Assembly (NCBI RefSeq): GCF_003334335.1
Contig: NZ_QOWQ01000208.1
DNA: 352 nucleotides
Origin: Escherichia coli
GTDB taxonomy: Bacteria > Pseudomonadota > Gammaproteobacteria > Enterobacterales > Enterobacteriaceae
Reading direction: 5' to 3' (one strand)
The position numbers and the translations under genes are program-made. Numbering within the stretch: the first letter of the stretch is position 1; every line of letters starts with the position of its first letter. The notes beneath the pieces were generated by a model, which ran no database searches, was not told the origin of the DNA, and saw nothing but the letters and a program-made list of their open reading frames with translations. Below, one piece after another: positions 191 through 352 of the stretch.

Positions 191-352
191 TCAGCTGATA
201 CTGATGCCTGCGGTGGCTTTCTTCATCACCACAACCAGCAAATCGCTGATACTTGCTGTGGGATACCAGTTATTCACCAGCCATGCTGACACCGAAAACT
301 CCAGTGTCATGTGACCGTGACCGGCAGGCATATCAATAACGCCACTGTAAAT
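191..352 (-). CDS. 3' end of a partial CDS (5' part lies beyond position 352): 53 codons plus TGA stop at 193..191, translating ...[53 protein letters not shown]. Interpreted as the C-terminal (receptor-binding) end of a lambda J-like tail tip/host-specificity protein.
   Basis: Seen in sequence: an open frame on the minus strand runs uninterrupted from the window edge to TGA at 193..191, and a terminator hairpin follows 19 nt downstream. Inference: the product assignment rests on synteny, since in phage lambda and lambdoid prophages lom sits about 60 bp downstream of J in the same orientation. I cannot recall the J C-terminal sequence well enough to confirm by identity. Confidence 0.6.

Follow-up and report, generated by a model that had tools for sequence, protein, structure and literature searches.

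It is already known that lambda gpJ, whose receptor is LamB, ends in an Ig-like sandwich of which four bottom loops insert into the extracellular lumen of the receptor, and that receptor binding spreads the three gpJ domains apart, with consequent opening of the tail (PMC11101478). Natural J proteins carry indels at 1012, 1048-49, 1077-78 and 1107, the last of these positions being also critical for the gain of OmpF function in lambda, where D1107 is one of two positions strictly required (PMC6646904).

The closest described systems are A8 and 1A2, natural prophage gpJ C-termini that were grafted on lambda gpJ at residue 964, screened as chimeras in a lamB-deleted recipient and tested on 23 plasmid-borne OmpC variants (Brödel et al. 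2024, Nature, PMC11338833). The 1A2 chimera delivers via EDL933 OmpC and not via LamB or K-12 (MG1655) OmpC, while the A8 chimera works on both K-12 and EDL933 OmpC (PMC11338833); delivery by 1A2 into MG1655 carrying EDL933 OmpC amounts to about 98% (PMC11338833, sheets for Fig. 1b and for Extended Data Fig. 8a). In the source sheet of Extended Data Fig. 2 of the same paper, the 1A2 and A8 numbers of panel C (OmpC-EDL933) equal those of panel B (OmpC-MG1655), apparently through a copying mistake in that file, so that panel c is unusable. The 1A2 module already serves in lambda vectors engineered for delivery against STEC, among them the EB003 anti-STEC vector (bioRxiv 10.1101/2025.02.28.640725). 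The central tail fibre of the phage 434/phi330 type is, like the 1A2 type, a lambdoid J-family tip that uses OmpC; its identity to the present allele is only about 47% over the last 173 residues, and it represents a separate allele lineage, so that OmpC use occurs in more than one J lineage.

The locus studied here, within a window of 352 nucleotides (the whole stretch of DNA analysed), is an ordinary and already described one, namely the C-terminal end of a J protein that belongs to the lambda family and is of the OmpC-binding 1A2 type, and its gene, domain, allele and receptor class are all in the literature. Its 53 codons suffice to place the tail tip of a prophage in the OmpC-binding lineage of the 1A2 type, and this placement predicts a host range (EDL933-like OmpC, not that of K-12).

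Gene identity of the 3' end of J

The 3' end of J occupies positions 191..352 on the minus strand and comprises the last 53 codons (J 1105-1157 in PhiR5_1 numbering), translated from 352..194, and the TGA stop at 193..191. The frame enters the window at 352, and on the minus strand the end of J is followed by a spacer of 67 nt and by the start of lom. Over this J-lom junction the sequence of Escherichia phage PhiR5_1 (PV340545.1, 44713-45064) agrees with the whole window at 100% identity, and its two genes are annotated as 'tail tip host specificity protein J' and 'Lom'; two complete E. coli chromosomes are likewise 100% identical to the window. The junction is common: of 5426 complete E. coli genomes, 4411 (about four fifths) contain a match, the median number of places in a genome being 2 and the highest 14. 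The record of PhiR5_1 gives E. coli C as the strain on which the phage was propagated. By homology to the lambda gpJ structures, a trimeric central fibre at the tail tip may be assumed for its J; a literature search on PhiR5_1 and PV340545 found no paper on the PhiR phages.

The family assignment was obtained on the PhiR5_1 gene, the 3' end of which is 100% identical to the window. Its product scores 2312.5 bits against the NCBIfam model NF049904 (lambda_TipJ; cut-off 1950), with residues 1-1157 of the protein covering 1-1163 of the 1163 model positions. The last 131 residues match the Pfam model PF12421 (Ig_GpJ_C) at its full length (E = 3.1e-38, model 1-135 of 135), reaching the final residue; this model bears the name 'Tip attachment protein J, C-terminal receptor binding domain'. 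Ahead of it lies a match to PF09327, the tail tip fibre domain (E = 8e-14). By these matches, positions 191..352 are the end of the Ig-like receptor-binding domain of J. The gene order in PhiR5_1 is H-M-L-K-I-J-lom, followed by an ORF of 1572 nt and a tail fibre assembly gene, and the order in lambda is the same. The two J proteins share 65% identity end to end; they belong to the same family, with the same domain order, the same position between I and lom and an Ig-like domain with four receptor-facing loops, while lambda J has 1132 aa versus 1157 aa here, a difference of 25 residues located in the helical shaft. The lambda protein has the accession P03749 and the PDB structures 8xcj/8xck and 8iyk.

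The initial annotation had read this segment as the C-terminal tail of a putative J-like host-specificity protein, and the PhiR5_1 annotation, the NF049904 score and the full-length Ig_GpJ_C match bear it out. It had also named the closure of the frame within a few codons beyond 352 as an observation that would speak against this reading; in PhiR5_1 the reading frame extends upstream by another 1104 codons, to a full protein of 1157 aa, so that no such early closure occurs. Two plus-strand ORFs, at 13-198 (61 aa) and 177-314 (45 aa), were considered as genes and rejected: they lie antisense to J and lom and have no support in any examined record, all of which annotate only J and lom there. As a side observation, database entries for the J C-terminus include many short fragments, and several carry frameshifts or fusions to unrelated domains; this is consistent with many decaying prophage copies and with draft-assembly breaks at a repeated locus.

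Allele and receptor

Over the N-terminal 800 residues, the present J and lambda J are for the most part 70-84% identical; identity drops to 50% at residues 1001-1100, and over the last 53 residues only 19 of 54 aligned columns are identical, with lambda ending in KKQALGISVV. The comparison of the last 173 residues with phage records gave about 53 records at 95% or higher, mostly long-tailed O157 Stx2a-converting phages and 'PPompW' prophages, a second allele group at 64-68%, lambda at 48% and phage 434 at 47.5%. In the O157 Stx2a and PPompW prophages the allele occurs with 98-99% identity, and those strains carry the OmpC variant recognised by 1A2. A search of the type that the initial annotation had proposed, a comparison of the peptide with J proteins of lambdoid phages, finds similarity to tail-tip J C-termini, both in lambda J and in the best PDB match by sequence, A8 gpJ 713 (9wca/9wcb, E = 7e-65), with the lambda gpJ-LamB structures next.

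The allele was compared with the DNA that Supplementary file 1 of PMC11338833 gives for 'GpJ 1A2', by means of a custom frameshift-tolerant protein-to-DNA alignment. In total 160 residues were identical in frame, two apparent differences were seen among 174 positions, and 12 residues were compatible after single-base repair; these 12 are to be read as 'compatible' only, as the source DNA is recoded and was machine-read with many dropped or added bases. Over the grafted domain (lambda residue 964 onward) the match is therefore 172/174 after the repair of reading errors, and every variable-loop residue with an in-frame reading agrees with 1A2. The first difference, F1067L, is probably a reading error because this column is invariant among the 18 aligned alleles. 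The second, S1155T (GITIS versus GISIS), is probably a real difference, and it matches a common natural polymorphism (ISIS/ITIS). Within the window itself the match is 52/53 to 1A2 and 38/53 to A8, and therefore the window carries a 1A2-type allele.

The likeness to 1A2 is thus one of the receptor-binding domain as such, including the identical GHGH and WLVNNWY stretches, while the 1A2 DNA as published has been recoded and terminates in AGITIS (AGISIS in the window), and 1A2 is a chimera with the N-terminal 963 residues of lambda, whereas the present J is a natural protein of 1157 aa. A8 gpJ, of which closed (9wca) and open (9wcb, bound to OmpC G17 of EDL933) structures exist, shares the fold (TM-score about 0.72) and the receptor family with the present J, its last strand is identical and its tail differs in one residue. 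However, over the domain it is only 64-68% identical (38/53 in the window), it has GQGT in place of GHGH and SSSGANNWT in place of SAWLVNNWY, it carries indels in two other loops, and it uses K-12 OmpC, which 1A2 does not.

It is therefore highly probable that the window holds the end of the J gene of a lambda-like siphophage or prophage with a 1A2-type allele, the likely receptor being EDL933-like OmpC. The initial annotation had argued that the exact allele would indicate the receptor, and this holds, as the allele is in essence gpJ 1A2, which is experimentally OmpC-dependent as a graft. From its near-identity to this experimentally characterised graft we infer that this natural J would use OmpC, most likely the OmpC of EDL933-like (non-K-12) E. 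coli, and not LamB.

Among the alternatives, it is unlikely that J is an OmpC-family binder with a specificity other than that of 1A2, e.g., a broad, A8-like one that includes K-12 OmpC, or one that extends to additional receptors. Such a specificity would be due to S1155T, to differences hidden by the reading errors or to the native N-terminal part. In its favour, there are one or two apparent differences, and 12 residues are compatible only; small J changes are known to shift receptor use in lambda (PMC6646904), and A8 and 1A2 differ in their OmpC range though their tails (TAGISIS and TAGITIS) are so similar. Furthermore, the J of Gifsy-1 binds three outer-membrane proteins (OmpC, OmpX and BtuB). 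Against this stand the identity to 1A2 of every variable-loop residue readable in frame, the location of the S/T position in the conserved tail, where it is a common natural polymorphism on similar alleles, and, anecdotally, the propagation hosts, as PhiR5_1 was grown on E. coli C and 434-like PhiR phages on K-12.

These hosts can be read from the deposited PhiR series (PV340545-PV340572). PhiR5_1, with its 1A2-type J, was propagated on E. coli C; PhiR phages with A8-like or intermediate alleles have ECOR13 or E. coli C as hosts; and among those with 434-like alleles, PhiR11_1 and PhiR34_1 were propagated on K-12 MG1655 and PhiR29_1 on ECOR13. That the host of PhiR5_1 is E. coli C fits the failure of 1A2 to recognise K-12 OmpC, in an anecdotal way.

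The function of 1A2 is known from the graft on lambda gpJ 1-963, and not in the native N-terminal context. To hypothesize, the native full-length allele could behave unlike the 1A2 chimera, either by using a second outer-membrane receptor besides OmpC or because the S/T polymorphism of the conserved tail tunes the opening of the trimer, and with it the passage from binding to ejection and not the binding as such, but we consider this improbable.

That J is instead a lambda-type, LamB-binding allele is very unlikely. The same family and fold as in lambda J, the 65% full-length identity and the significant PDB matches to the lambda gpJ-LamB structures would fit such an allele, but the identity to lambda is low over the last 173 and the last 53 residues, the segments aligned with the lambda host-range positions contain indels and different residues, and the 1A2 graft, nearly identical to the present allele, came from a screen in a lamB-deleted recipient and is OmpC-dependent. 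When the residues around 1012 and 1107 were compared, the loop aligned with lambda 1101-1114 was found to differ and to be one residue shorter than in lambda.

Loops, strands and tail within the last 53 residues

The preferred reading, a 1A2-type allele, can be followed along the 53 residues on an AlphaFold2 monomer model of the J domain, made with an alignment of 18 sequences from which short fragmentary database entries were excluded (pLDDT 79.5). The model matches 9wcb, 9wca, 8xcj and 8xck at a TM-score of about 0.72; 9wcb is the 'open state of A8 gpJ 713 with OmpC G17 from E. coli EDL933'. In the model, a predicted strand (1103-1112; the window starts at 1105) ends in the start of the DMPAG motif (1111-1115), followed by the turn P-A-G-H (1113-1116), which leads into GHGH (1115-1118), and by a second strand at 1117-1129, all on the minus strand. 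GHGH is encoded at 311..322 (minus strand) by the tandem hexamer GGTCAC GGTCAC, i.e., an exact tandem GTGACC GTGACC on the plus strand, and it is the turn that follows the invariant DMPAG and lies between the two predicted strands. Next comes a predicted long loop of 12 residues (J 1130-1141; 242..277, minus strand), seen both in the model and in the column variability, and then the last beta strand, LLVVVMK (J 1142-1148; 221..241, minus strand), which is identical to A8 in 7 of 7 residues and conserved among alleles, with VQVMVIK in lambda, and is structural core. It is followed by the C-terminal tail, KATAGISIS (J 1149-1157; 194..220, minus strand), of which residues 1151-1157 have a pLDDT below 50 in the model.

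Conservation is unevenly distributed over these elements. Invariant or nearly invariant across the alleles are D-M-P-A-G, G1117, L1121, F1123, V1125 and P1135, together with further conserved residues, while variation and indels of the natural alleles concentrate at H1116, H1118 and W1128-Y1134. The columns of H1116 and H1118 hold 6-7 residue types among natural alleles (GRGN in lambda, GQGT in A8), and W1128-L1129 together with the loop 1130-1141 form a hypervariable segment with indels, aligned with the lambda loop near D1107. The WLVNNWY stretch, which the initial annotation had singled out, lies in this hypervariable loop and is the informative part of the 53 residues. The four natural indel sites of J listed above coincide with four variable loops in our alignment. 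From the model, loop 1130-1141 would be a receptor-facing bottom loop, and the four variable loops would lie on one receptor-facing side, while the side towards the fibre would hold the conserved turns (DDQPF, NG and DMPAG) as well as the C-terminal tail; the top and bottom assignment follows from strand-order reasoning on the monomer model, and not from coordinates.

In the mechanism that we propose, three copies of J would make up the central tail fibre, and the Ig-like domain at the C-terminus of J would dock on an outer-membrane porin, with DNA ejection as the consequence. The conserved pieces of the 53 residues would build the beta-sandwich, and H1116, H1118 and W1128-Y1134 would belong to one of the four specificity loops.

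The general claim that the extreme C-terminus of J determines the choice of receptor holds with a shift of emphasis: the signal for specificity would reside in the turn GHGH and the loop WLVNNWY and not in the final ISIS residues, as the tail is common to alleles of different specificity. The comparison with known host-range mutant positions, which had been suggested along with it, agrees in that the hypervariable loop aligns with the region of lambda D1107. Likewise, of the proposed richness of the last 53 residues in aromatic and hydrophobic residues, the hydrophobic part was confirmed (28/53 or 53%, in the top 1.5% of J windows, versus 39% for the whole J) and the aromatic part was not. There are five F, W or Y residues (5/53 or 9.4%), and this content is unremarkable because 39% of the 53-aa windows of the same protein reach at least as many.

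As for the ending itself, its coordinates, translation and near-repeat had been given correctly: the plus-strand letters 194-205, GCTGATACTGAT, are the reverse complement of ATCAGT ATCAGC and code for I-S-I-S. This 'repeat' is a two-unit hexamer with one mismatch, one of three such loci in the 352 bases (69-80, 194-207 and 310-324). Natural alleles end in ISIS, ITIS or ISIG, and lambda in ISVV, with no length variation at the site; as alleles end in ISIS or ITIS interchangeably, the repetitiveness is incidental. The ISIS tail is conserved between 1A2-type and A8-type alleles, and because it is common to alleles that differ in their OmpC-variant range, it is scaffold with a chance dipeptide repeat, and not a specificity element. 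A 9-nt direct repeat, GCTGATACT, is also present at 194-202 and 245-253, 51 nt apart, with both copies coding for S-I-S (in GISIS and ASISD); such a pair appears in 15% of shuffles and is therefore probably due to chance. It is hardly credible that the ISIS near-repeat is itself functional, be it as a slippage site for phase variation, as a signal for trimerisation or as a motif in contact with the receptor. Tandem hexamers that match in at least 5/6 letters are indeed more frequent in the window than in shuffles (8 overlapping positions versus 1.6, P about 0.013), and two of the three hexamer loci fall in the J tail region, but slippage of a hexamer with only two units would add or remove merely two residues, and the constant length of the natural endings, the sharing of the tail by alleles of different OmpC-variant specificity and the frequency of the 9-nt pair in shuffles all speak against it.

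The J-lom spacer and lom

The spacer between J and lom contains a terminator-like hairpin at 143..172 (minus strand), GGGCGCC-AGAAAT-GGCGCC(T), with a stem of 8 bp that includes 6 GC pairs, followed by the T-run TTTTTATT. The search found one such site versus 0.3 expected, with a folding energy of -18.6 kcal/mol (z = -2.4). In lambda, a weaker hairpin and the T-run TTTTATT occupy the same place, which suggests that the predicted hairpin limits read-through from the late operon into lom in both phages. An Rfam search of the window gave no match at E up to 1, and a search of the window for sigma-70-like promoters found none. A Shine-Dalgarno-like GAGAGG at 129..134 (minus strand) lies 5 nt upstream of the lom start and is conserved in lambda.

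The first 41 codons of lom occupy 1..123 on the minus strand, with the ATG at 123..121, and the frame MRKVCAAILSAAICLSVSGAPAWASEQQ runs off the window at base 1. By annotation, lom encodes an outer-membrane beta-barrel protein of the Ail/Lom family. Residues 1-24, MRKVCAAILSAAICLSVSGAPAWA, which end in AWA, look like a putative Sec signal peptide. The Lom homologue (L001:6230-6829) is 41% identical to lambda Lom (E = 4e-53) and stays under the NCBIfam cut-offs for Rck and OmpX. With this value, the divergence of lom from lambda is comparable to that at the receptor-binding end of J, where 19/54 aligned columns agree in the last 53 residues, while J overall stands at 65%.

Downstream of lom and outside the window, the PhiR5_1 stretch L001:6980-9149 holds the gene of 1572 nt, annotated as 'hypothetical protein', and the tail fibre assembly gene. 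As this ORF stands in the position of stf-tfa of lambda, it is probably a side tail fibre and as such a second determinant of host range.
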